Shown here in pieces: positions 1-20,000 of a stretch of 20,000 nt of DNA; the first letter of the stretch is position 1; the number at the start of each line of letters is the position of its first letter. Below the pieces are notes generated by a model that did no database searches, was not told the origin of the DNA, and was given only the letters and a program-made list of their open reading frames with translations. The stretch is taken from the NCBI GenBank assembly GCA_030167865.1, contig JALAGF010001637.1:54048-74047 (forward strand), written 5' to 3'. The position numbers were made by a program, and so were the translations under genes. The stretch is from Craspedostauros australis (Eukaryota).

Positions 1-2373
1 GAAACGCGCTTGCGCCCACTCGTGCAAGCACTGAATCAACATGGCTGGAACGAGCAGCACACGCAACCGATTCCATTGCTGGCCAATGAACGATGCGGAT
101 CCTGGTACACGTACCCGTTCCACTTGGATGCACTGCAATCGCTGTCAAGCTGCTACTTCAAGAGCACGGATGGCCATGCGCGCATGTGGCACGTCAGCTT
201 GAAGCGCCTCAATCTCCGATTGATTGAGTTGTTGTCACAGCAGCAGCAGCAGCAACAGGCGGGCAGCGACGCATGGCAACCAGGCGTCATTCTTGTGGAT
301 GCCTCCGTCCGCAAGGTGCTTCCAGACAGCATGTCCAAAACCATACCAATCTGGGCCGCCGTGATCAATGCCTTGGTGCTGCGATATCGCGGCGAGGGAA
401 TCGGAGGGAGATCGTATGATGCACAGCCATCTCATGAGTCTGCGCCATGGGATACGTCGTTGCACGTGCCCGCGCATGCTGTTGCGGAAGAGGAACGATG
501 CGCCATCGGGAACTTGCTGGATCAACGCGTGGAGGAAATGTACACGTCAGGTGTCATCATCGACCGCGAATGGCTTGTCCGATCAATGCGCAAGCCGTTG
601 CGATGCGTTTGGCTTCCGCCTGACATTTCGGGAGATGGCATTTCCACTTTCCTGCAAGAAGAGGCGTGCAGAAGCAATCGCAATGCCGATACCAGTGGCG
701 ATAGCCATGCCAACAGCTTCCGATCATTCCAAGCACATCTCAACGAGCTGCGGCGTCGATACTACGTTCTGCTGTGTATCAACGCATCAGATCGTAACGA
801 CAGACACCGATGGCTGAATTTGGATGATCCCCACGTTGGGCAGAAATTCGTTTACTTGCCAGGATCGGCCGACGATCATGAATCCTGGTCAAGCAGCCCG
901 CACTTCTCGCCCAACTTGTTTTGGGCCAACAAGGTGGAGCTGCTGTCCCTGCGTGGGAGCAGGGACGACGACAACGGCGACCTCGATACAAGTCAAAGAG
1001 CTGTCGGTGGCAGCAAGCAACAAGCAGGCGCTACTCGCAACGACAACAGCAACGTGACTCATGCACCACTGCAGAGCCAAAATCAGACTGGCAACACAGA
1101 AGGCATCGACGACAACAGCACTCGGAATGGAACACATGACGATCAGACCGAGCAACGCTTGCAACGTCTCATACAGACTTATCTGCGACGGAGACAGTCG
1201 GGCAGCGCAGAATTCGATTCCAATATGGCCAGAGGCTCATCAGCATCGGGCTGGAATGCTGTTGGCAAAACGAGACTGGCGATCGGTTCACGTCGAGCTG
1301 GACGGCCACCGGAGTGTTGGAATCAATTCTCAGCCATCCTCAATGTCACAACCACAGAATATGAAGGTATTCATGATTCCCACAATAACGACAATCGTCA
1401 GAGTAAGGGAAGCAGCGGGAGCGAGAATGGCGCGGATCGCAAAGCTCAGGCTTCAACAGAACCACCAGCAGAATCATCATCACCATCGGCGCTGACAACG
1501 AAACCAGAAATCGCAGCGGCAAAACGTGAGCAAAACGAAACCGTATCACGGTACTATTTGCAGCTGCTAGTCGAAGAAGGTAAACGAGACAAGATGGGAC
1601 TCGAGAAGTGGCTCACCGTCGGAATCGTCTTCTGCGTGACACATCTCCTGTCTCTCGCGCATCAGCAAAGAGCACAGGTGCGACCGCTCTCTGATGCACC
1701 AATCGTCCTCATCCATTGCGCACAAGGCAAGGATCGGTCCGTGGCTGTGGCGATGGCGGTCGTTCTCATCTTTGCCAAGCTCGACTCGTTTCCATTGCGA
1801 TGGGATTGGGAGCTCATGGAGTTGGTAGCAAGGAATTGGATTGGCAATCGAGATGTCAATGTCGCCGTGACTGACCAAGCCGCGGCAAATGCAGACGGCA
1901 ACGCGGTCGATGATCTGGCAGAGTGCGATGGGTGCGATCCCCAATCGCGCTCGGGCCTTTCCGCAGATTTCGTGGAGCGATTGAAAGGACATGAAGGCCG
2001 AGACTTGCTGCTCGATTGGGTATCAGTGGCCCGTCGTCATCGTCATCGTCTTCACCACCGCCACCATCAGCTCTCAGCTCCATCACGGCCATTTCAATTG
2101 CATTCCGAAGTAACACACAAGGCAGGAATAATTGAGGATTCAGCCCCCGCCTCCGCCGCTATCAAATCCATTCCTTCCAATTCCGAGTCTGGCGATGACG
2201 ACAAAGAAACACGTATCAACAGCGAAGATGCGCCGTTTGCTTCGAAGGAACATATCCGTGTCGTGTTGCATTGGATTCGGCAGGACCGCGAGCATGCGGA
2301 GCCCACGCGATCAACGCTCCAGAAACTGAACCGGTATTTCCTGAGTCGCAGCCATGAAGACTCTAGAGAGTAA
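1..2373 (+). CDS. RIT1: Initiator tRNA A64-2'-O-ribosylphosphate transferase (Rit1-like), 5'-truncated by the window edge
   Basis: The frame is open from base 1 (GAA ACG CGC TTG...) to TAA at 2371-2373. Rit1 family motifs: PLLANERCGSWY, CYFKSTDGH, SLKRLNL, ILVDAS.RK.LPDSMSKTIPIWAAVIN, GSADDHESWS. C-terminal DUSP-like part: HCAQGKDRSV and PTRSTLQKLNRYF. Long low-complexity inserts are present. Confidence 0.9.
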   Translation, partial: ETRLRPLVQALNQHGWNEQHTQPIPLLANERCGSWYTYPFHLDALQSLSSCYFKSTDGHARMWHVSLKRLNLRLIELLSQQQQQQQAGSDAWQPGVILVDASVRKVLPDSMSKTIPIWAAVINALVLRYRGEGIGGRSYDAQPSHESAPWDTSLHVPAHAVAEEERCAIGNLLDQRVEEMYTSGVIIDREWLVRSMRKPLRCVWLPPDISGDGISTFLQEEACRSNRNADTSGDSHANSFRSFQAHLNELRRRYYVLLCINASDRNDRHRWLNLDDPHVGQKFVYLPGSADDHESWSSSPHFSPNLFWANKVELLSLRGSRDDDNGDLDTSQRAVGGSKQQAGATRNDNSNVTHAPLQSQNQTGNTEGIDDNSTRNGTHDDQTEQRLQRLIQTYLRRRQSGSAEFDSNMARGSSASGWNAVGKTRLAIGSRRAGRPPECWNQFSAILNVTTTEYEGIHDSHNNDNRQSKGSSGSENGADRKAQASTEPPAESSSPSALTTKPEIAAAKREQNETVSRYYLQLLVEEGKRDKMGLEKWLTVGIVFCVTHLLSLAHQQRAQVRPLSDAPIVLIHCAQGKDRSVAVAMAVVLIFAKLDSFPLRWDWELMELVARNWIGNRDVNVAVTDQAAANADGNAVDDLAECDGCDPQSRSGLSADFVERLKGHEGRDLLLDWVSVARRHRHRLHHRHHQLSAPSRPFQLHSEVTHKAGIIEDSAPASAAIKSIPSNSESGDDDKETRINSEDAPFASKEHIRVVLHWIRQDREHAEPTRSTLQKLNRYFLSRSHEDSRE

Positions 2374-2619: not shown

Positions 2620-4008
2620 TTATGGTGCTTCCGATTGCAACGCGGTTCGTTCGATCATGCGCAGCAAAGGGCCTCGAGGGTCGTACGGGCTCAAGCAATC
2701 ATCGCCGCACGGCAGCTCTATCCGTTGCATTGCAGTGTCTGGATTGTACGGGCTACCAGCGCCATGCAACAGCCGCTTTGTGTTCTCGACCCCGAAGTGT
2801 TCCACGAATCCCTGGATCCAAGATCGTGCTTCATCACCGCAGGGAGGTCCTGGATTTTTTATGGATCTGTTGCCGGCGTCGTGCCACTTATCAGTCCTGT
2901 TTTCCATCTTGTCACGCCGGTCGTTCCGATTCAGAAAGCTCTCGTAGGATCCGATGTAGTGGTTGATTCGGAGGATATCGTGTTGCTGTCCCCATGCACT
3001 CGGACATTGATCCAGCAAGAGCTGATGGGTGGATATCTTCCGCTTCGCAAAGTGCAGCCTGGACACATCCCCGATCGCCTTGCCGAAGTACTTCTGCCCT
3101 TCAGTGTGCCGAAATCGAAGCGTCTGAAATCGATACGGGTCCAGGAAGTCGGGGACTCCGCGACGGACATGTTCATCCGGACTTTCCATGGGGCTGTACT
3201 GCAGGCGCAGCAAGGTCACGCACTTGCCTTCGAACTGGCTTTCCCCTCCCATGGCTTGACGCTGTTGGATGAGCTGCAAGAGGTTGAAGACGCTGCCCGG
3301 CTGTGACAGCCTCTGCGATACGTTGGCCACCTCGTCACTTCTGAAGACGATGAATTCATCCGTGTCGATGAACATGGTCCACGTGCGGTTGTTCTCTTGA
3401 AGGTGCATCGCGCAACCGCGATAGAACTCCGCCTGGTTCCTCAGATGGACGGTGTAGTCCCGCGTGCCACGTTGCTCCGGATCCGCCGTTCGCAGCACAG
3501 CCCGTTCCAGGGCCTGGATCCGTAGCAGCTGATTCTTGTCCGCAATGAATTGCGTCTGATTTTGCCACACCTTGATCTCCATGAGTCCCTCCCACCGTCT
3601 CACGATGGGTTCGAGGTGCTGAGTGCTCTTTGGATCTCGGAAGATGATGAGGGTCCGCAGTGAGAAGGTGTAGTACTGGTACGCAATCCATTCAACCAGT
3701 CGTTGGGAGTCATCCATCCAGATGAGACATGCCGACGACGCGTTGCGCGCATCAATGTCCAGGGAAGGCGGCGGCTGGATCGGGACGTGGATCGTGGTGG
3801 AGTCACTCATGTCATGCCCGTTGGCATCAATTGATGCGCTTCCATGGTGGGCCTCGGTGGTAAAGTACGCATTCCTTGAGTTGCCGCTTCGGAGATCGAT
3901 GGATCGAATGGGCGACCGCAGGATTGACAGCACGCTGATGACCAACAGAGACGCAACTGCAATGATCGCTTTGTTGTTCCTCTTTGGAAGCGTCGTTGCC
4001 GATTCCAT
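2620..4008 (-). CDS. Glycosyltransferase family 92 / DUF23-like (GT-A fold) type II membrane protein, ~462 aa
   Basis: First ATG is at 4008 (the ORF track starts at a TTG, 4038); stop is TAA. A basic N-terminus and single TM (AIIAVASLLVISVLSIL) are followed by SACLIWMDDSQRLVEWIAYQYY, the DxD motif WTMFIDTDEF, GKAIGD and LRINHYIGS, typical of GT92-like proteins. Confidence 0.75.
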   Translation of the reverse strand: MESATTLPKRNNKAIIAVASLLVISVLSILRSPIRSIDLRSGNSRNAYFTTEAHHGSASIDANGHDMSDSTTIHVPIQPPPSLDIDARNASSACLIWMDDSQRLVEWIAYQYYTFSLRTLIIFRDPKSTQHLEPIVRRWEGLMEIKVWQNQTQFIADKNQLLRIQALERAVLRTADPEQRGTRDYTVHLRNQAEFYRGCAMHLQENNRTWTMFIDTDEFIVFRSDEVANVSQRLSQPGSVFNLLQLIQQRQAMGGESQFEGKCVTLLRLQYSPMESPDEHVRRGVPDFLDPYRFQTLRFRHTEGQKYFGKAIGDVSRLHFAKRKISTHQLLLDQCPSAWGQQHDILRINHYIGSYESFLNRNDRRDKMENRTDKWHDAGNRSIKNPGPPCGDEARSWIQGFVEHFGVENTKRLLHGAGSPYNPDTAMQRIELPCGDDCLSPYDPRGPLLRMIERTALQSEAP

Positions 4009-4816: not shown

Positions 4817-7800
4817 TCATGGCGCTGAGATGCTATCTGCTTCAGTTGCTGTCGTCTCCGTCTCATCTGTGCTGCTGTCGCCCTTCTTTGTCAGCGCGAC
4901 ATTCTTCGTCGACCCGCCAGCTGCGCCGACCTTTTCCAACACACCCAGGAAGGTCTCGCTGGCCCACGTGCTGTACCGCTTCTCCCCGCCGAATGACGGA
5001 CTCGCCATGTGGTTGGAGAGGAATGTGACGGTTTGCAGGGTGTACTGGAACAGCGGCTTGACACCCCCCTTGCGCCCGTACCGCAGATTCGTCTCGGCCA
5101 ACGCAGCCACGTCTTTCGTGAACTCCGTCAGCACCTTCCAATTGCTCTTCCTTTGCGTCAGGCTCGGCAGAACCTTGACGATTATCTGGCCGAGGATGGA
5201 GAAGGCATGCACTCTGGAGACGTCAGCGTCGAGGCTCGGTTGCTTGGAAACCATGAGCTGCAGGATCGTCACCCATTTTTCGTCCTCTACGTCCTCGGTC
5301 TCCGTTGACATGACGTGTCGTTGGAAGTATTCCCAGCCCACCTTGGATGCGTCGGGGTCGTCCGATTTGCAAACGCTGTAAAATGCAATGGCCACTCGGT
5401 ACCACAGCTCTTCATCTGGGACCAGCCGAGGAGGCGTCGCACCTCCGTTTTTCGTCACGTGCTGGATCTGATTGATTTTGACGGTATGCTTGTACGTCTT
5501 TTCTACGCATGCCATCGCTGGATTTGCGAGTGACACGTCCCCGCTATATGCGCCGTAGATGTATTTGAACAAAACCCGCTGGAGTGTGGTGCATGCCACG
5601 ACCGAAAGGGTCGGCTTTTCCTTGAGCAGCTTCGAGTACACTTTCAGGCTCCCGCCTTCTGCTTCCGATGGCACGGCGAATTCCACGGTTGACGCGATGC
5701 CGTCAAAGACGAGACCGCGGGCCGCCGTGTAGATGGCGAGCATGTCGAAGAGATCGCCGATGCATTTCCATTCATCCTGCGATTGGAACAGGAAGAATGA
5801 AGACCGCAGGATGATGGCGAGACCGCAGGCCATGCGGTCCGAGATGTATCCCATGAAGTCACCTCTGGGCAGAGTCGACATCTGAACCAACGACTTGCTC
5901 AGTTCGGGTCGGATCTGCGTGTTTGTGCGTCAAGACAATACCGATGGTGGCGGCGACGGCGACGACGATAATGTTGAGGGGAAGAAAAATAGTTGTCGTG
6001 ATACCAGTGTTGATGCGCAACGCAGCCAACACATGAATGCATGAATACGAAAAGCACGCAGTCGGGCAGGTGGTGTTTTTGTGAGGTGGAGTGCGAATAA
6101 GCATTGGATCATGTACCGCACTCGTTTAAGTACACTCAGATTGAGAGAGGGAGGGATACAGACAAAGACATTTGGTACACACCAGCTCTTTTCCAGCACA
6201 ACACACAACCACGAGCGCACATCCAGTTCCAGTCACACTGCTGGGAGCAACGATCACACAAACAACACATATCAAATAACAAACGACACACTGCAATACG
6301 TACATTTGCGTAAAGATGGATGCTCGATCTCAGCATTGTGACGATCATCCGCTCCACCAAAAATGGAAACGGTGGCTCCTCCTCATCCTTCATCTTGGAA
6401 AGGAAGGATTGAAACTTGACTAGGAACAGCGGGAACAGCTTGGAAGCTCGTTCGCGGTTGGCCAGCAACGCGCGGGTGGCGAGTTCCAGAGCGAACGCCC
6501 TGTGCTGCTCGAAGGTCGGGGTCCGCGTCGACGAAAAGTCGTCGATATTCTCCAGCAGTTTGGCGATGCTGTGCTTGACGATGGGGAAGCGCACCTTCGA
6601 TGTCAAAAGCATGAATTTATCGATCTCCGATCTCTCTGCGACCTGTAGCAGCGTGCGAGCGTTAGCGGCCAGCTCCGTCCGTTCCGATCCCATATCAATT
6701 TCCAAAATGGGCGGTTCAGCATCCAACTCATCTCCGTCTTCTCGCCTCCCGCGCTTTCCAAACAGAGGAAGACGGAACCACCCTTTACGATCAGCGGGGT
6801 TCTCCTCGTTTGAACCTCGGTAGTAGTCGTCCAGGATTCGTTGCGATTCGTCGGCGTACGGTGACAGGGGGAGCACGTTGCCGTCGCTGTCGGCAAAGTC
6901 ATCAAGGTCCGCCAATCCGGCAGGCAGAGCTCGCGCGTCACGCATCACGCACAGCACCTCGATGAGCGATGGCCAGGCCTCGCGGACTCGAGGGAAGAGC
7001 GCTCGCACTATTTTCAGGGCCATGTGGAGTGCCAGCAGCCCTCTGTAGGCAGCGCTTCCGGATATATCAGTCCGCTTGGGGTCGACGGATGTCATCTCCC
7101 TGGCCCTCAGGAGTGCCTGGGGGATGGGCGAGTCTGGATCCACGAGACTCATGGTTTCGTCGTCCTCTGGCGAGGGGTTGATGGGCGCGCCGCTTTCGAT
7201 GCCGGAGAATTCGAGGGAGATGCAACCGACGACGAAGTCTCTGCCATGGATGAGCAAGAAGTTGAGGATGTCGTTGAGGATCTTGTCCAGACCGAAGAAC
7301 GTGCTGATCTTGGCCATCTGCTCGAATCCCTTCAGCGTCTCCACGATGGTGCCATCATCCCACGACCGCACGAATGCACTGGAGAGCGCCTTCAGTGCTG
7401 GCTTGGCAATGGAAAGGAACATGTCCTTCTCGTGGACACCGGCCTGGTACATCGTCTTGCGGGCTTCGTCCACGGTCGTGAACAGCGGCGTGGCGACATT
7501 CTTTGCCAGCAGATCATCCCAGGCCGAACGGATGTCCTCGGCCGTGGTAGCGTCGGAGCTTTTGATGAACTCTCCGATCTCGCGCTGCAGCTGGATCTCC
7601 GTTTGCTTGATGTGCTCGTAGAGGGCCTTGAGCATGTCTCCCGGGAGATCTTCGCCATCGTTGATGCCGCGGTTGTTCCGGATGAATTGTTCGCAAGTCA
7701 TGCGGTTTTGGTCCTTGATGGTTGGGTTGTGGAGATCGGTGTTGAGCATGATCGTGGAGAAGGCCAAGACGAAGACGGCGTCGGAGCTCTTGAAGATGGA

Positions 7801-10053
7801 GCCTTCGCCTTGCTGGCGGTACAGTTCCTTGGAGAATGCCTCCATGAAACGGTCGATGCACTGCGCTTCGCCTGGCATCCTGAACTTGGAGAGGAAGAGA
7901 CGCAGGCACGATGCGAAATCTGTGTCCTTGGAGAAGTCGAAGAGCTGGACGAACTCCTCACGGACTTCGTGTTCGAAGGGGTAAGAGCTCGCTGGGCCGA
8001 TGCCGAGGTACTCGCCGATCTTGGCTTTGTCGAGGCCAGGCGCCGAGTACAGCATCTTCGCGACGCTGTGCGCAGTGTCATCGATGAGCTTGAATTCCTT
8101 GGCGATTTGAATCCACTCCTTGCTGGTGACGCGGTCGTTGAATTCCTTGGCGACCTTCGACCAGGCGTGCTTCTTCTGCTTGCGTTCGCGCAGCTCTTCT
8201 TCCGTGACTTGCTCGCCCGCCTCGTCCTCCATGGAATCTGAGTTTGAAAATGACTTGGACGAACGCGCGTTGCTGCAACGTCGGGCGATGGAATCGATGA
8301 TGGCCATGAGACCTTCGAGGGCGAGGATGTTGAGCACGTTGAGGGGGACTTCGGCTGCCGCGGCCGCCGCCTTGAGCGCGATGGCTTTGTTCTGCTGCTG
8401 GATGCCCGGCCGACCGAGGCCCCTCTCGACGGACCGGTCCATCTCCACCGTCAGATGCGTCTCGCCTGTGCAGAAGCCGGATGGTGCCGCCACGTTGCCC
8501 AAGGTCGCGCATATGCAGTCGTAGAGGTTGGTGCACTGGACGTCGCAGTCGTAGTTGAGGTAGATGTCCTTCATGAGCGCTGGTTCCTGGCAGAATTCCA
8601 GCAAACTCTCGAGCGCCACCTCGCGCTCCTCGAAGACGTCTGAATGCTCGGCGATTCTGAGATGGACGCTGGTGAGGAAGACCTCGAGTGGGACCTTGAT
8701 GTGATTGCGGATCGTTTGGAAGAGGTTGAAGATGACCCTGAGCGTGAGGTTGAGGATGACGAGGTCGTGCGTCGTGCTCCACTGCAGCAGGAACTTGCAG
8801 AGGTCGTTCTGCAGGATGGCCACCTCGTTGGGCGAGGGGTCGTCCCTCATGGTTTCCAGCGCGATGTTGACCAAGGACAGTGAGTTGACGGCGTAGGCAT
8901 CCGAATTTTGCTGCGGGTTGAGGAGGGACGCTAGCTTGGCCAAGATGGCCTCCCTGACCTTGCGCAATTCCGACTGGCAGAAGACGTGCAGGACCATCTG
9001 ACCGAGCGCGTCGGAGGCCGCGCTCTTGAGCAAGCCGCTGGCGTGCTTGGCGCGATGGGAGACGTGCAGACAGGTGTCCAGGAGGCCGACGACGAGAGCA
9101 GTTTCCAGCAAATGCGATGCGTAGCGCACCACCAACGCGGACAGCTCGAGCAATTTGAGCACGACCTGCTCATCCTCCCTCTCCTGCGTGCCCACGTTGA
9201 AGACGTTGCGCGTGACGCGGTCCTGATTTCCCGGCACCGTGTCGGACGCTCCGTTGGTCTCCTCGAAGGTGCACTGCAGCAGCGCATCCGCAATGGTGGC
9301 GTATGACTTTGGCGCGCTGGCGTTGTTGAAGAATCCGTAGAGGAGGAACTTGTGCAAGGCGTTGAGCGCGGCGCCCGTGATCCTCGCGCTGATATCCCTG
9401 CCGCGAATGGCGGCGCAGAATGGTTGCAGGTACATCCTCGGTTCCGGCTGCCTTTGGTGATGCAGCACGTCCCACTCCCCCAGCATCGAATGCAAGTCTC
9501 TGAGCTGCAGCAGCAGCGGATGATGTTCGTCGGTGGGCAGTTCCTCGACGAAGCGGAGAGGGGACACGTACCTGGCGTCGGCCCTCATGGCGTTGAGAAC
9601 GTTGTGAATCTCGCCCTTGATGACCTTGCACACGCTGGTTGGATGGATGAGGAGCGCTGGCGATGCTGTTTGCGGGAACGGCATGGGAGGGCTTGCTGAT
9701 TGAGGCATCGACGCACCGTGTGGCTTGCCGCGCGGACCCCGTCCGTTCATGTGCTTGCCGGATTGCGGATGGGGCCGATTCTGGCCGTGACCCCGGCCCT
9801 CGCCATTGCGACGTTGCTGGGGATGCTGCGGTCTCCTCTGCGCTCCGGGTTTGGCCTTCCCATCATGCGCGATGCCGTTGCCGTTGCCAGGGCCGCCCTG
9901 TCTCGGCATGGGCTTGCCGTCTGGATTGCCGTTCTGGCTGCGATACCTGGGGTTCGAGAGACGGTTGTTGTTGGCCGTTCCGTTGCTGATCGGCGGGCTG
10001 CTGTTGCCCGCAGGTCGTGTTGCGTTCATTGGAGCCATGTTTCCATTCCGCAT
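4817..10053 (-). CDS. GBF1: Large Sec7-domain ARF guanine-nucleotide exchange factor, GBF1/GNOM/Gea type; exons 10053-6304 and 5914-4817, ~1615 aa
   Basis: DCB region (YLQPFCAAIR...ITGAALNALHKFL), HUS box (YLNYDCD), Sec7 motif 1 with the glutamic finger (FRMPGEAQCIDR) and motif 2 (FSTIMLNTDLHN...FIRNNRGINDGEDLP), then HDS-type helical regions. A phase-0 splice AAT|GTACGT...CACGCAG|ATC joins the two ORFs in frame (IHLYAN/IRPELSKSL). Confidence 0.92.
5915..6303 (-). other. Spliceosomal GT-AG intron of GBF1 (389 nt, phase 0)
   Basis: Donor GTACGT at 6303, acceptor CAG ending at 5915, with a CTTGAC branch-like site ~15 nt upstream. Removal keeps the frame between the 1305-aa and 357-aa ORFs. Confidence 0.8.
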
Positions 10054-11386: not shown

Positions 11387-13743
11387 CTACTTTTGCGTGT
11401 AAACCTCTTCGACTTCATCATCGTCGCTGTCATCATCGTCGTCGTTGGCCTGTCGGGCCTTCTTGAGCTGCTCCTTCTTGAGGGCGGCGTCGGACTTGGG
11501 GGCGATGGCGGGTTCGTTCTTGTCGTCGTCATCATCATCGGAATCGTCGTCGGAATCATCGTCCGAGTCCTCCTCGATGTTGGCGTTCAGCATCTCCTCG
11601 AACAGGGTCGGCTCGTCATCCAGCGCGGCGTCGTCGGGGTGCATCTTGTACTCTGGCAGCGCGGCGTTGTCCAGCGTGGTGAGGCTCACCTTCTGCGATT
11701 GGTCCAGGCCCACGTAGGCGCTGGACATCACGTGGAGGTCGAATTCGTACGTGCCCACCCGCGGGGCGAGGAATTTGATGGGGTGCTTCACGACGCGGTC
11801 CGCGTTGCCCACCTTCTCGATGGAGATGATCTTGCCCTCCTTGGTACCGAGTATGATCCACCAGGCCTCCTGCTTGGGGTACGGGAAGTGGGGGGCATGC
11901 ACGAGTCCTGCCTTCTCGCCTTCCTTCAGGTTGTTGCGCGTGATGGTGACGCGGACCGTGCAGAGGTCGCCTTCGTACACCTTGTCATCCTCGTCGTCAT
12001 CGACGAAGACCTTGCTCTCGACGGTGATGTCGGGAAGGATCTTGAGGTAATCCATCACGTCCTTCTTCTGCTCCTCCGAGAACTTGGCGAGGCCCTTCTT
12101 CTGCTCATCCGGCACCTGGCGGTATTCGACGATTGTGGACGCCTTGCCCTTGCCGGTCTCGCAGTGCTTGACCTCCTCGGGCGTGAAGTGCGGAAGCTGC
12201 AGCAACGTGGAGTCCTTGACCCACATGGCTTGGGTGACGTACTGACCGAACTCGATGCAGTTCACGGCGGTTTGCAGGGAATCCTGGTGCTTGCAGACGC
12301 TGATCATGGCGTCGACGAGGCTGCTGGAGACGCGCAGCATGTAGTTGAGATCCTCGACCATGAGCGCGTCCTTGATGGTGCTGGCCTTTCTCAGGAGGTG
12401 GGAATGCATGAGGACGTTGCCCTTGACGCAGACGGGGTGGTTGTACTTTGGCTTCTGCATCTGCGCCTTGACGAGCGACATGAGCTGCGCGATCTGCGAC
12501 TTGTCCTCCGCCGATTTGGGGACGTTGCGCTTTCTGAATTCCGCGCTGCCGGCCACGACTTCCGGCAGCGACTTGACCAGGGTGTGCTCGTTGAGGGTGA
12601 AGTGGTACCACGAGTAGGTGTCGTACATGACGTCGTTCTCTCCGAACTTGGAGGAGTCGGTGTAGTAGGTCCAGACGCAGAATGGGATGACGCCGACCAT
12701 GATGATGAGGTAGACCATGAGGACGAGGTTGCGGTTGCCGGTGTCGAGGAGGAAGTCCGGGAGGCCGATGCTGACCTCCAGCGATTGCTTGCCGTCCGGA
12801 TTTCCGTACTTCTCCCAGTTCTCACGCGCGGTCTCATCGGTGAGGGATTCGTAGGCTTTGGAAATCATCATGAAGCGTGCCTCGGCTGCTCTGTCTCCCG
12901 GGTTCTTGTCAGGATGGAACTTGAGAGACAGGGTTCTGTAGGCCTTCTTGATGACCTTCGCGTCGCTGTTGGAATCGATCTCGAGGATGGAGAAGGGATC
13001 GAAGGAGTTGACCTGACCGTCGCTGGCGACCGAGGTGCTGAGCCACAGGAAAAGCGCGGTGAGCATGAAGGTGAGGATGAAGTTGAAGACGAAGCCCTTC
13101 GATTTGAGCACGTTGCCCAATCCCTTCCTCTCCTTTTTGAGGTTTTCCGCCTTGGCCTTTTCAGCGGAAGTGCGCGTGATGGCCCCCAGCTTTTCATCGG
13201 TGATGAAGAGCGCATTGTATATCGTGCCGATGATCGAGATCCATGCTGTGATTTGGTTGATGGGGTCGATTGGGTGGGTGGAACAGAATGAGGAAGATGG
13301 GATGTGACGAGGTGGGGAAGGAGACGATGGAGATGTCAGAACGCAGTCGTCAGCAGTGAAACGACTATTGTCACACAATGTAATGTAAAGCAATGGAATA
13401 TAAAGCAATATGATGCAATGTGCTATGCTGTGCATGCATTGGCAGTCTGCTCTGGCTTGATCTGAAGAACCACAGGCCCCTGATGATTCTATCTCAGCCA
13501 TCAAACGCAGCTGCGCACTTGCTGTTGCGTGTGCTCAGACTTTCCCTGGCTCATCTGGAATGAACGTTGATGAATGATCGCATTGGCGACTTTGTGCGGA
13601 GCAATCGGGCATGCCGCCCAACGCCTGCTTCATTTCAGACCATCATACTGGTTGGAAGACGCAATGGACTCACATGGGACGATGTACAGCGTGATGAAGC
13701 TGAGCGCGAAGAAGTAGAAGGCGGAGTTGTCGTACTGCAACAT
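11387..13743 (-). CDS. SEC63: ER translocon J-domain subunit Sec63 (ERdj2); exons 13743-13674 and 13245-11387, ~642 aa
   Basis: Exon 1 encodes the typical Sec63 N-terminus MLQYDNSAFYFFALSFITLYIVP. Then TM2, a J-domain (FDPFSILEI...YRTLSLKFHPDKNP...NWEKYGNPDG), IGLP, TM3, a Sec63/Brl domain (LLQLPHF, VHAPHFPYPKQEAWW, YVGLDQ) and an acidic C-terminal tail. Confidence 0.95.
13246..13673 (-). other. Spliceosomal GT-AG intron of SEC63 (428 nt, phase 1)
   Basis: Donor T|GTGAGT at 13673 and acceptor ATCACAG|CA at 13246, after a C/T-rich tract. Splicing gives in-frame ...YIVP-S-WISII. Confidence 0.88.
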
Positions 13744-15507: not shown

Positions 15508-17022
15508 ATGCACAGTCATCCCACTGCCAGGAGAGCCATGCTGCTCGTCATCGCTCTGTGCACATGGCCTTGCTTGGTGCTTTCCGTTTCACCTCCTGCA
15601 CCCATCGCAGACAGCAGGTTCTATCAGGAACATCTCTCGCACATTCGAACCAACCAACCCATTCCTTCCCTGTCCAATTCGCTCCAGATCCGCGGCGGTG
15701 GCAGGGGCAGTTCAAGCACTGCCGACAGACGCAACAGGGCATCATCAAACGCTGATAATGGCCAGGATGCAGACCCGATCGCGTCACTGGCACGCCAGCT
15801 CTCATCGTCGGTTGGACAGCAGGCTTCGCGCGTTGGCACCGCCCTGCAGGAATCAGCCCAAACATTCAAGAAATCCCTGCAACAATCTGATGACGACGCT
15901 GTCGACGATAGTCGATCTAGCGATAGCAGTGATTCGCCTGCTGCGGATGGCGCTAGCATCAGGGCAGGGCATAAGAGCAGAATGCCTCCTCGTGGCATGT
16001 GGGGACTGAGTCATGGCAGCAAACATCATGCAGCACCATCAAACGGTCGAATGGGTTTGAAACGCCATCACATCTCTCCGGTTGTGCCGTTTCTAGGAAT
16101 GCAATGGATCCGAGTGGCCCTGTCCATCCGAATATTCATGGAGGTGCTGGACTACTGCGGATGGATTGACCAGGACGCACCCAACAAGCTCAAGCAGAAC
16201 GTCATTTCCGTGTGGGGCCGGACCAAACCGAAGGTCGAAAGATGGCAAACGCGCGTGCACAACTGGTGGGACGAAGGTCAGCAGATGCACGTCCTGTGGC
16301 ACCCCTCCACCTGGTCCAGCCGGCAGCGGTTCCTGCAGGCATTGCACCAGCTCCCTTCCAAACGCCAGTTCACCGTCGGCGCCTGGATCGGAGTCCTCGC
16401 GACATCGTCCGTCATGTGCATCGCGGCATCGTCGACCCTCACCGCGGCGTTGCTGACGCGGTGTCTGCAACCCCTCGCATCCGCATGCCTGGGCCCGGCC
16501 GCAGCCACGTACGCCTGCTCCGAGATTAACTTCTCCTACAAGCGAAAGCGCAGGGGCTGGAACCTCAAGGAGATCACGGGCGGCGACGACACGATGGGCG
16601 ATGCCATCGACAAGGGACTCGAGTCGGTGCGCATCCGCGTCCGCAAATTCCTGCGGCGGACGAACGCATTCTTCACTTCCAACTTTGTCGAATCCAAAAT
16701 CGCGTACGAAGCACCGAAGTCGGAAGATGCGCTTTTGGATGATGAGATCAACAACGTGCTGCGATCCTCCGGTGGCTCGTCGAGCTACTACTTTGGGCGC
16801 ATGCGACAGCAGTTCATCGAGCTGCAGCAAGGTATCAAGGAACTCAAGGAAGAGCTGGGAGTCCGGACGATGTCGTCGATGACGGGGGAATCATCGGGTA
16901 CGTCATCGGGAAGGGCCGCGCTGGGTCCGAAGTTGGCGCTGCCGGTGTCCATCAAGAAAGGACTGGCGGTTGGAATCAGTTCCACCTTGTTCCTCTTCCA
17001 TGCCAACAGTGACACTGGATGA
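15508..17022 (+). CDS. Hypothetical secretory-pathway membrane protein (~504 aa; signal peptide, LQIRGG motif, hydrophobic segments, short coiled coil)
   Basis: 1.5-kb open frame with ATG at 15508 (alternative 15538). Hydrophobic leader MLLVIALCTWPCLVLS, a C/G-ending codon bias in the 3' half, TM-like segments (FTVGAWIGVLATSSVMCIAA; GLAVGISSTLFLF) and heptad-like MRQQFIELQQGIKELKEEL. No family recognised. Confidence 0.7.
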   Translation: MHSHPTARRAMLLVIALCTWPCLVLSVSPPAPIADSRFYQEHLSHIRTNQPIPSLSNSLQIRGGGRGSSSTADRRNRASSNADNGQDADPIASLARQLSSSVGQQASRVGTALQESAQTFKKSLQQSDDDAVDDSRSSDSSDSPAADGASIRAGHKSRMPPRGMWGLSHGSKHHAAPSNGRMGLKRHHISPVVPFLGMQWIRVALSIRIFMEVLDYCGWIDQDAPNKLKQNVISVWGRTKPKVERWQTRVHNWWDEGQQMHVLWHPSTWSSRQRFLQALHQLPSKRQFTVGAWIGVLATSSVMCIAASSTLTAALLTRCLQPLASACLGPAAATYACSEINFSYKRKRRGWNLKEITGGDDTMGDAIDKGLESVRIRVRKFLRRTNAFFTSNFVESKIAYEAPKSEDALLDDEINNVLRSSGGSSSYYFGRMRQQFIELQQGIKELKEELGVRTMSSMTGESSGTSSGRAALGPKLALPVSIKKGLAVGISSTLFLFHANSDTG

Positions 17023-17939: not shown

Positions 17940-19586
17940 CTACACGGACATCGTGGACTCGCTCTGTTTCCGCTTCCGTGCTTCCCTCGAGGCTTTCATC
18001 TTTGCAATGCGTTCCTGTATCTGGCGTTTCTTGTCGGCTACCGTCAGACCACCAGTGGTATCGGCGTTGCCACCATCTCCCTGTGTCGCCGCGGATACGA
18101 AGGACGAATTGACGCGGACCTCCTTTTGGTGAACGCGCCTGTCGGATTTGCGATGCCGGCGGTACCACGATGATTCCGCATTAGCAGACGGCATCTCCTC
18201 CATCTGATCGTCCGACATCGAGTCGTACCGACCCTCCAATTCATCCACGAGCCCAAGTGCAAGGTCCAAGGTCCGCACGCCGCGGGAATTGGCGAGCCTC
18301 AACCGAAGATCGTGCTGCTCGTTGAGGTAGCGATGAAGGAATTTGAACAAATGCCCGCGCATGATGCTGACGGATCCATCAGGACCCAAGACACCGGGCA
18401 ATGGCGGGGAAACGTCCCTGCACACCCCTAGGTAGTCCCGCGCGAAGCCAACTTGCTGCCGTAGCCTCTCCCGCGCCGTCAATGGTAAACGCGACGATGG
18501 CTGGAAGATGTTGGGCGTCTCAAGCAATGCCTCCGACGACATGGCGGCGTTTGCATTTGTCGTTTCCAGAATCGTGCGCACGTCCTCATTGTACTCCATC
18601 CCGCCGTTGGCCACGATCTGGAAGTCGGGGTCGATTTCCCGCGCTTTGGAGGCGGCCAGAGCCACGCGATCCACATGGCACGCGGCCACCTTGGTCTTGT
18701 TCTCGTGCAACGTTCTACCGTGGATCGCCAGATGATTGATGCCCGTGGCGATCAGCTTTGGAATTCGCCGCAGCATTTCGTCGTCCTCTTGCGGCAGCCG
18801 TATCTTGCAGGAGACGGCGGTTTTGGGAAAGTGCTCTCGCATGGATTTGGACAATGCCGCGAGGATCTCGCACACCCGATCGGTGTCCTTTTCCATGAGG
18901 AATGCTCCGTAATTCCCCTTGCGCGCGATGCCCTGCGGACATCCGCAGTTCAGGTCAAACCCGCTGACGCCGCCCTCTGCATGCTCTTGTATCCGCAGCG
19001 CCGTCTCCAAGATCTTGTCAACATCGTCACCGGCAAGTTGGACGATGAGCGGTGCACGATCGTCTTGCGCCGTTTCGTGAGTGTCACGAGGTTGAGATTC
19101 GCCGTCCTCGATTCCCTAGCACCGCCGCTGCGAGGCTGAGAGTTTGGGATAGGTGATGCCCGTCTCCCACAGATCCAGATGGGTGGCGCGGAACGTTGGA
19201 TCGGAGCAAAAGTTATTGCAATGCAGCATCTGTGTGTAGGCCAAGTCGACGAAGTTGTTCTTTCGGAGGAAGTACCGAAACGGGTAATCGCTGGCCGCAA
19301 CCATGGGCGCCGCGATGGAATGTATGGGAAAGTCTGGATGGGATGGAAGAATCAAACCCTGTGGACGTTCCGGCTGCTGCTGCGATGATGATGATGATGA
19401 TCGTGCTAATGTTTGGCCTGCCATTCCATCTGCGGACGAAAACAACGCGAACGAACTTGGCGTTGCCGATGCTGCAATCCCCAAGCTGTGGGCGGCGTTG
19501 CTTGGTGGGCAGAAAGTTCGCGTTACTCTTCGCGACAGCGGACGAAGCCTGGTTTGGAAGGCGACGGTCGAGGCTTGGGCAGCCAT
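17940..19586 (-). CDS. DUS1: tRNA-dihydrouridine synthase, Dus1-like (~548 codons), interrupted by one in-frame TAG at 19116-19118 (nonsense allele, sequencing error or readthrough)
   Basis: Upstream of the stop: IAAPMVAASDYPFR and LAYTQMLH. Downstream in the same frame: PLIVQLAGDD, GFDLNCGCPQGIARKGNYGAFLM (catalytic Cys), VSCKIRL, LAIHGRT, IVANGG, MSSEALLETP, RGHLFKFLH. The start is uncertain (ATG 19586, or upstream in-frame ATG 19787). Confidence 0.88.
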
Positions 19587-19916
19587 GGTGGCGCCCACCT
19601 GAAGCCACACGAGGCTCAGCAGATAGGAATATGAGGATGGGCGGCCTTGTGATTGGTCCGAGCACCGCTTCTGAATGAGGCCACGGCTTCCTCGCTCATT
19701 GCCCGATGAGTGGACGCCGCTCTGCCTTGCTTCGTTCTCCGAAATGCAGCTGCCGACTTTGGAGCATTGCCCGGTCTCGACTGCCATTCTGAGCGGAGAT
19801 GTTCAGCGCCTCCAAGAGCTCGTGGAGTACCAATGGTGCACGAGGAGAATGATAGAACGCGATGCCAACATCCAAGAAGACTGAAGTCCGCCAGTGGTGT
19901 AGAGTACGATCTATTA

Positions 19917-20000
<84 letters not shown>
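19917..20000. repeat. (TAG)n trinucleotide microsatellite, 28 perfect units, running off the window end
   Basis: Uninterrupted TAG repeats read directly from 19917 to 20000. Confidence 0.99.

Follow-up and report, generated by a model that had tools for sequence, protein, structure and literature searches.

In the gammaretroviral UAG-G readthrough signal, the stop codon is followed by a purine spacer of about 8 nt and a pseudoknot. Cellular cases are also described: readthrough at UAG in yeast inserts Gln, Tyr or Lys (PMC4150775), A-to-I editing of a stop codon in fungi gives Trp (PMC10776026), and a nuclear code that reads UAG as Leu exists in rhizarian exLh (PMC5304391). Two further papers give 1898 nonsense SNPs for P. 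tricornutum, where most SNPs are heterozygous (PMC10833087), and a viable yeast mutant lacking all four dus genes (PMC9176250). Here, we describe a single in-frame TAG in a dihydrouridine synthase (Dus) family gene of the diatom Craspedostauros australis and compare it with these systems.

A Dus reading frame interrupted by one TAG

The stretch of 20,000 nucleotides analyzed here, referred to as the window, makes up the final 20 kb of a contig of 74 kb; the assembly has 65.9 Mb in 6734 contigs. It contains the following features:

184-2373, plus strand: Rit1-like tRNA phosphoribosyltransferase
2620-4008, minus strand: glycosyltransferase, GT2/GT92-like
6136-10053, minus strand: Sec7 ARF-GEF, probably continued by 4817-5881
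11387-13501, minus strand: SEC63, ending in TAG
15508-17022, plus strand: ORF of 504 amino acids with no Pfam match
17940-19787, minus strand: Dus-family (Dus1-like) gene of 615 codons, apparently intronless, with one TAG inside
19119-19787, minus strand: its upstream part, 223 amino acids, with an N-terminal extension, the APMV and YTQM motifs and the start of a clade-specific insertion, and without the catalytic Cys
19116-19118, minus strand: the premature TAG, at the Leu of the clade motif S-Q-x-x-C-L-G in the homologue alignment
17943-19115, minus strand: its downstream part, 391 codons, with QLAG, DLNCGCP, KIRL, HGR, ANGG, MSSEALL and the C-terminal region
18939-18941, minus strand: codon for the Cys of NCGCP, with the next ATG (18896) lying further downstream
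19548-19625, minus strand: hydrophobic stretch followed by TVA/FQ, resembling a diatom plastid-targeting cleavage motif

Translation of 19787-17940 on the minus strand gave 223 amino acids, a stop, 391 amino acids and a terminal TAG, with no further stop or frame break. This agrees with the sequence-only reading, which had placed ORFs of 223 and 356 amino acids in one frame split by a TAG and had seen no other frame damage. The frame of the 356-amino-acid ORF was correct; its start is a TTG, and the first ATG after the stop, at 18896, opens 318 amino acids. Since this ATG lies after the Cys of NCGCP (codon 18941-18939), which we take to be the catalytic Cys of Dus enzymes, re-initiation would be of no help and was rejected, as the earlier reading had also argued. 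On the minus strand, the context of the premature stop is CGG TGC TAG GGA ATC GAG. The gene belongs to the Dus family (PF01207), scoring 128.7 bits against a cut-off of 20.4 and carrying the NxGCP, K, HGR and ANGG motifs, and Dus motifs were found on both sides of the TAG as had been claimed: Pfam positions 2-39 match upstream (19.4 bits, just below the 20.4 cut-off) and positions 45-286 downstream. The copy in the genome is base-identical to the window and is the single match in its own genome; a search there for a second haplotype or paralogue, with the middle base of the codon set to N, returned the TAG form only, and only once. The Dus start codon is preceded, about 130 bases further upstream, by a (TAG)n/(CTA)n microsatellite (19921-20000) with which the contig ends.

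Eleven Dus-family loci were found in the genome (L002-L013, the window gene included), compared with four in yeast, and the matches at the ten other loci contain no stop. In a quick tree, which included no named yeast or human Dus references, four of these loci (L004, L007, L009 and L011) formed a separate long-branched group, and the clade of the window gene stood apart, with 98-99 support, from the intact Dus1-type gene of the same genome (L002) and its relatives. The label 'DUS1' given previously is thus right as to the Dus domain and loose as a strict name, which would imply grouping with canonical Dus1 and modification of U16/U17, and in the source records the names of the homologues vary as well (synthase, synthase 1, synthase 4). 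An xxAF-type cleavage motif is associated with plastid targeting in diatoms. A motif count made without a chance control found it in 25 of 36 sequences, the window gene included, each time in the N-terminal part, and it hints that the gene product may be targeted to the plastid.

The stop column in relatives and the state of the gene

The homologue alignment comprised the 120 listed of 300 homologue matches. At the column of the stop, these 120 proteins have Leu in 81, Ile in 23, Val in 4, Phe in 2 and a gap in 10 cases, the gaps being five fragments and five proteins without the segment. In the latter (P0044, P0066, P0071, P0073 and P0074), the LxxSQxxCL segment is absent from the clade insertion, perhaps through a natural deletion, perhaps through a fault in the gene models. 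Among the top 56 homologues the column holds Leu 47 times, Ile 8 times and a gap once, and the surrounding motif reads S(39)-Q(55)-x-x-C(45)-L(47)/I(8)-G(46), where the window has S-Q-R-R-C-stop-G. The alignment is colinear around the TAG, with the S-Q-x-x-C and G flanks conserved and no sequence added. The best protein homologues are 55-58% identical, the named ones being from raphid pennates, Cylindrotheca and Nitzschia among them, and no relative above about 59-60% identity was found among the listed protein homologues or the metagenome contigs.

At the DNA level, 80 metagenome loci were compared, of which 75 span the site and 22, most of them distant, have an aligned residue there; none of these 22 has a stop. 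The nearest DNA relative, metagenome locus L077 (59% identity), reads TGC TTG GGA where the window reads TGC TAG GGA, so the stop can be explained by a single T>A change. A scan of the metagenome contigs for the exact pattern of the site with any middle base gave no match. These comparisons are to be read with the protein database being blind to relatives that share the stop, and the DNA comparison including L077 as its one near relative. Among the single-base neighbours of TAG, only TTG encodes an aliphatic residue, and in sampled ORFs of the genome 617 of 3000 Leu codons are TTG. The suggestion of a TTG(Leu) to TAG nonsense allele or a base-call error as the simplest explanation is therefore borne out by a mostly-Leu column and by the TTG of L077, and the orthologue alignment that had been proposed as a check came out as Leu in 81 of the 120 listed homologues with no stop in the 22 DNA loci.

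Apart from the TAG, which is one base away from the codon of the relatives in a colinear alignment, the gene showed little decay. There is no other stop or indel, and GC3 is 0.706 downstream of the TAG and 0.705 in the upstream core, compared with 0.717 +/- 0.068 in sampled ORFs. Highly conserved columns are kept in 136 of 143 cases (21/21 upstream, 115/122 downstream; Fisher p = 0.59), that is 95.1%, where the homologues range from 0.897 to 1.0 with a median of 0.979 (97.9%). The codon-usage score is 0.11, compared with 0.23 +/- 0.10 in a training set that had been filtered for high scores, and the end branch of the gene in the quick tree (0.64) is joint-longest in its 19-row clade; the slightly raised divergence of the protein could reflect lineage distance or some relaxed selection. 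By computation, about 3.7% of single-base changes in the gene create a stop, yet there is one stop and no indel in 1845 bases, indicating little neutral drift. The little decay seen in GC3 and the catalytic motifs suggests that the lesion is likely recent, with some relaxation possible.

We consider that the TAG represents a recent TTG>TAG nonsense mutation at a conserved Leu of a single-copy diatom Dus gene, with a probability of about 0.68. We infer from the relatives that TTG was the ancestral codon, which a T>A change would have turned into TAG. Translation would then stop after 223 residues, before the catalytic Cys, leaving a truncated product with hardly any of the catalytic domain, so that the TAG allele would have lost its function. 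The cell probably tolerates the stop in one of two ways: either it is diploid and has a second, working allele that was lost when the assembly was collapsed to one haplotype, or it can do without this enzyme, Dus enzymes being dispensable and other Dus genes being present in the genome.

Alternative readings of the TAG

Two further features bear on the alternatives:

19087-19110, minus strand: CGAGG/CCTCG stem of 5 bp (arms 19110-19106 and 19091-19087; z = -0.18 for a 36-nt piece)
19064-19120, minus strand: shortest frame-keeping GC-AG excision, 57 nt, which removes the TAG and spares the core motifs; weak donor

A consensus error in the assembly, with the organism having TTG and an intact Dus gene, would fit a gene that is otherwise whole, at a site some 880 bases short of a contig end in a fragmented assembly. 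Two of the 80 fetched metagenome Dus loci likewise carry an isolated single stop. In L079 this is a TAA, about 9 residues past the Leu column and within the same variable loop, and in L080 a TGA at a conserved Gly after the NCGCP motif; both could be G>T changes. Against an error, coding regions of the assembly are not error-prone: profile searches of the genome gave 182 matches (139 kinase and 43 DEAD), of which six were flagged with stops and all six were intron edges on inspection, leaving none with a true internal stop. The scarcity of background stops favours a real allele, and we regard an error as unlikely, though far from negligible. The same matches speak to the nucleus reading UAG as Leu genome-wide in the manner of exLh, for which the fall of the TAG on a Leu column is the favourable point. 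No TAG occurs within the coding parts of the 182 domain matches or of the other 15 Dus matches, TAG bounds 27 of 108 long coding-like ORFs, and it ends both SEC63 and the Dus gene itself, which confirms the terminators named in the sequence-only reading and its argument against code-wide reassignment. A code change looks different where it occurs: five metagenome Dus loci (L127, L130, L140, L144 and L145), whose source organisms are probably ciliates or others that have reassigned TAR, have 5-8 in-frame TAA or TAG per alignment. In a partial tRNA search that included patterns for CAA or CTA anticodons, two genes for tRNA-Leu(CAA) were found and no credible CUA tRNA among 62 loci scanned and 16 pattern hits, with Rfam scoring covering 63 of 1301 candidates. 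A relaxed ARAGORN call of a suppressor tRNA with a 293-nt intron disappeared once the intron length was limited, and four pattern-hit loci had no Rfam match. With in-frame TAG scarce and TAG in use as a terminator, a genome-wide UAG=Leu code is refuted, its likelihood being as good as nil. The tRNA searches also yielded an ARAGORN call of a tRNA-SeC (UCA) at L065 (G000:C6529 near 105920). In addition, four short contigs (L054, L056, L057 and L059; L054 without an Rfam match) share an identical match of 57 nt whose end resembles a tRNA T-arm, and this is probably a repeat.

Rescue confined to this gene could take place by programmed readthrough or A-to-I editing of the UAG, yielding full-length enzyme, and the intact downstream frame, the UAG-G ahead of a small stem and the five of 120 listed homologues without the loop segment, which suggest that the segment may tolerate change, are compatible with it. 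In fungi, stops corrected by editing often stem from non-Trp codons (PMC10776026), so Leu ancestry is no strict bar to editing. The UAG-GGA context with a 5-bp stem had been pointed out as loosely resembling a readthrough signal; the stem does exist, and its stability is no better than chance, as four folds of the region compared with shuffles gave z = -0.70, +0.58, -0.46 and -0.18 in a model without pseudoknots, and it is missing from the 79-nt minimum-energy fold. G follows TAG at 5 of the 15 TAG stops bounding long coding-like ORFs of the genome, showing that this context is common. None of Gln, Tyr, Lys and Trp, the residues given for yeast readthrough and fungal editing, occurs among the 110 residues at the stop column of the 120 listed homologues, which is always aliphatic or Phe, and none of the 22 related DNA loci with an aligned residue, most distant and one near, has a stop. 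Within 620 kb, 667 stop-separated frame pairs were screened, and no other Pfam domain spanning a stop was seen in the top 30, in a weak screen that ranked the Dus gene itself 26th; a literature search judged by titles and abstract openings returned no case of readthrough or editing in a diatom. The more exciting option of the sequence-only reading thus loses its footing, and we rate it as highly improbable. Its statement that no canonical intron removes the stop was upheld: every frame-keeping GT-AG excision of the TAG deletes core motifs, so a GT-AG intron was rejected, and of 332 frame-keeping GT- or GC-donor excisions across the TAG, just 7 leave YTQMLH and PLIVQLAG both in place; these use GC donors throughout, and 5 of them remove HLDLWE. 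A GC-AG intron of 57 nt, newly arisen within a dispensable loop (19120-19064), would preserve the frame together with YTQMLH, HLDLWE and PLIVQLAG, has CTCAC about 15 nt ahead of its AG, and would leave a linker of 28 residues, inside the 25-34 range of the five homologues without the segment. On the other hand, its donor T/GCTAGG is far from the GTGAG/GTAAG found at all 5 donors inspected, it has no pyrimidine tract, it is 57 nt long against 117-288 nt for the 4 introns measured in the genome, and the unspliced linker of 47 residues already lies within the usual 39-61 (55 of the top 56 homologues) and retains the conserved C-x-G. The excision is unlikely to be real, and such intronisation has very little to recommend it as a rescue of the stop. 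Even taken jointly, the routes by which this gene alone might be recoded or rescued (readthrough, A-to-I editing and the birth of the 57-nt GC-AG intron) appear improbable.

Comparison with described systems

If the UAG were rescued, this would be the first such case in a diatom nuclear gene, and the UAG would give the cell a point at which to control a tRNA-modifying enzyme that is probably targeted to the plastid. A rescue seen at the RNA level would mean that a new instance of recoding, or of the birth of an intron, had turned up in diatoms; no finding here suggests rescue. As a nonsense allele or error, the TAG has little importance, except that automatic annotation would split or truncate the gene model, for which a flag is needed.

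With the gammaretroviral signal, the locus shares a UAG followed by G and a short stem; it differs in a spacer of 5 nt, a stem of chance-level stability and a TAG-G context that is common at stops of the genome. Fungal editing of premature stops likewise involves an in-frame TAG with an intact downstream frame, but gives Trp, mainly from TGG (PMC10776026), whereas the column in the diatom Dus is Leu/Ile. In the exLh code (PMC5304391), UAG likewise coincides with Leu, but is in general use as a sense codon, whereas in Craspedostauros the case is isolated and TAG ends genes. Compared with the solved Dus relatives, human DUS2 (4xp7, 6ezc), T. thermophilus Dus (3b0p) and E. coli DusC (3w9z), the NxGCP, KIR, HGR and ANGG motifs align, and the window protein differs by an N-terminal extension resembling a plastid-targeting signal and by belonging to an algal clade with an insertion (HLDLWE...SQxxCLG), which houses the stop. 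The nonsense alleles of P. tricornutum (PMC10833087) were called from reads with known zygosity, whereas the Craspedostauros TAG is known from the assembly alone; they are likewise single premature stops in otherwise normal diatom nuclear genes, and a single nonsense allele (or error) of this sort is an ordinary thing of an already known kind.
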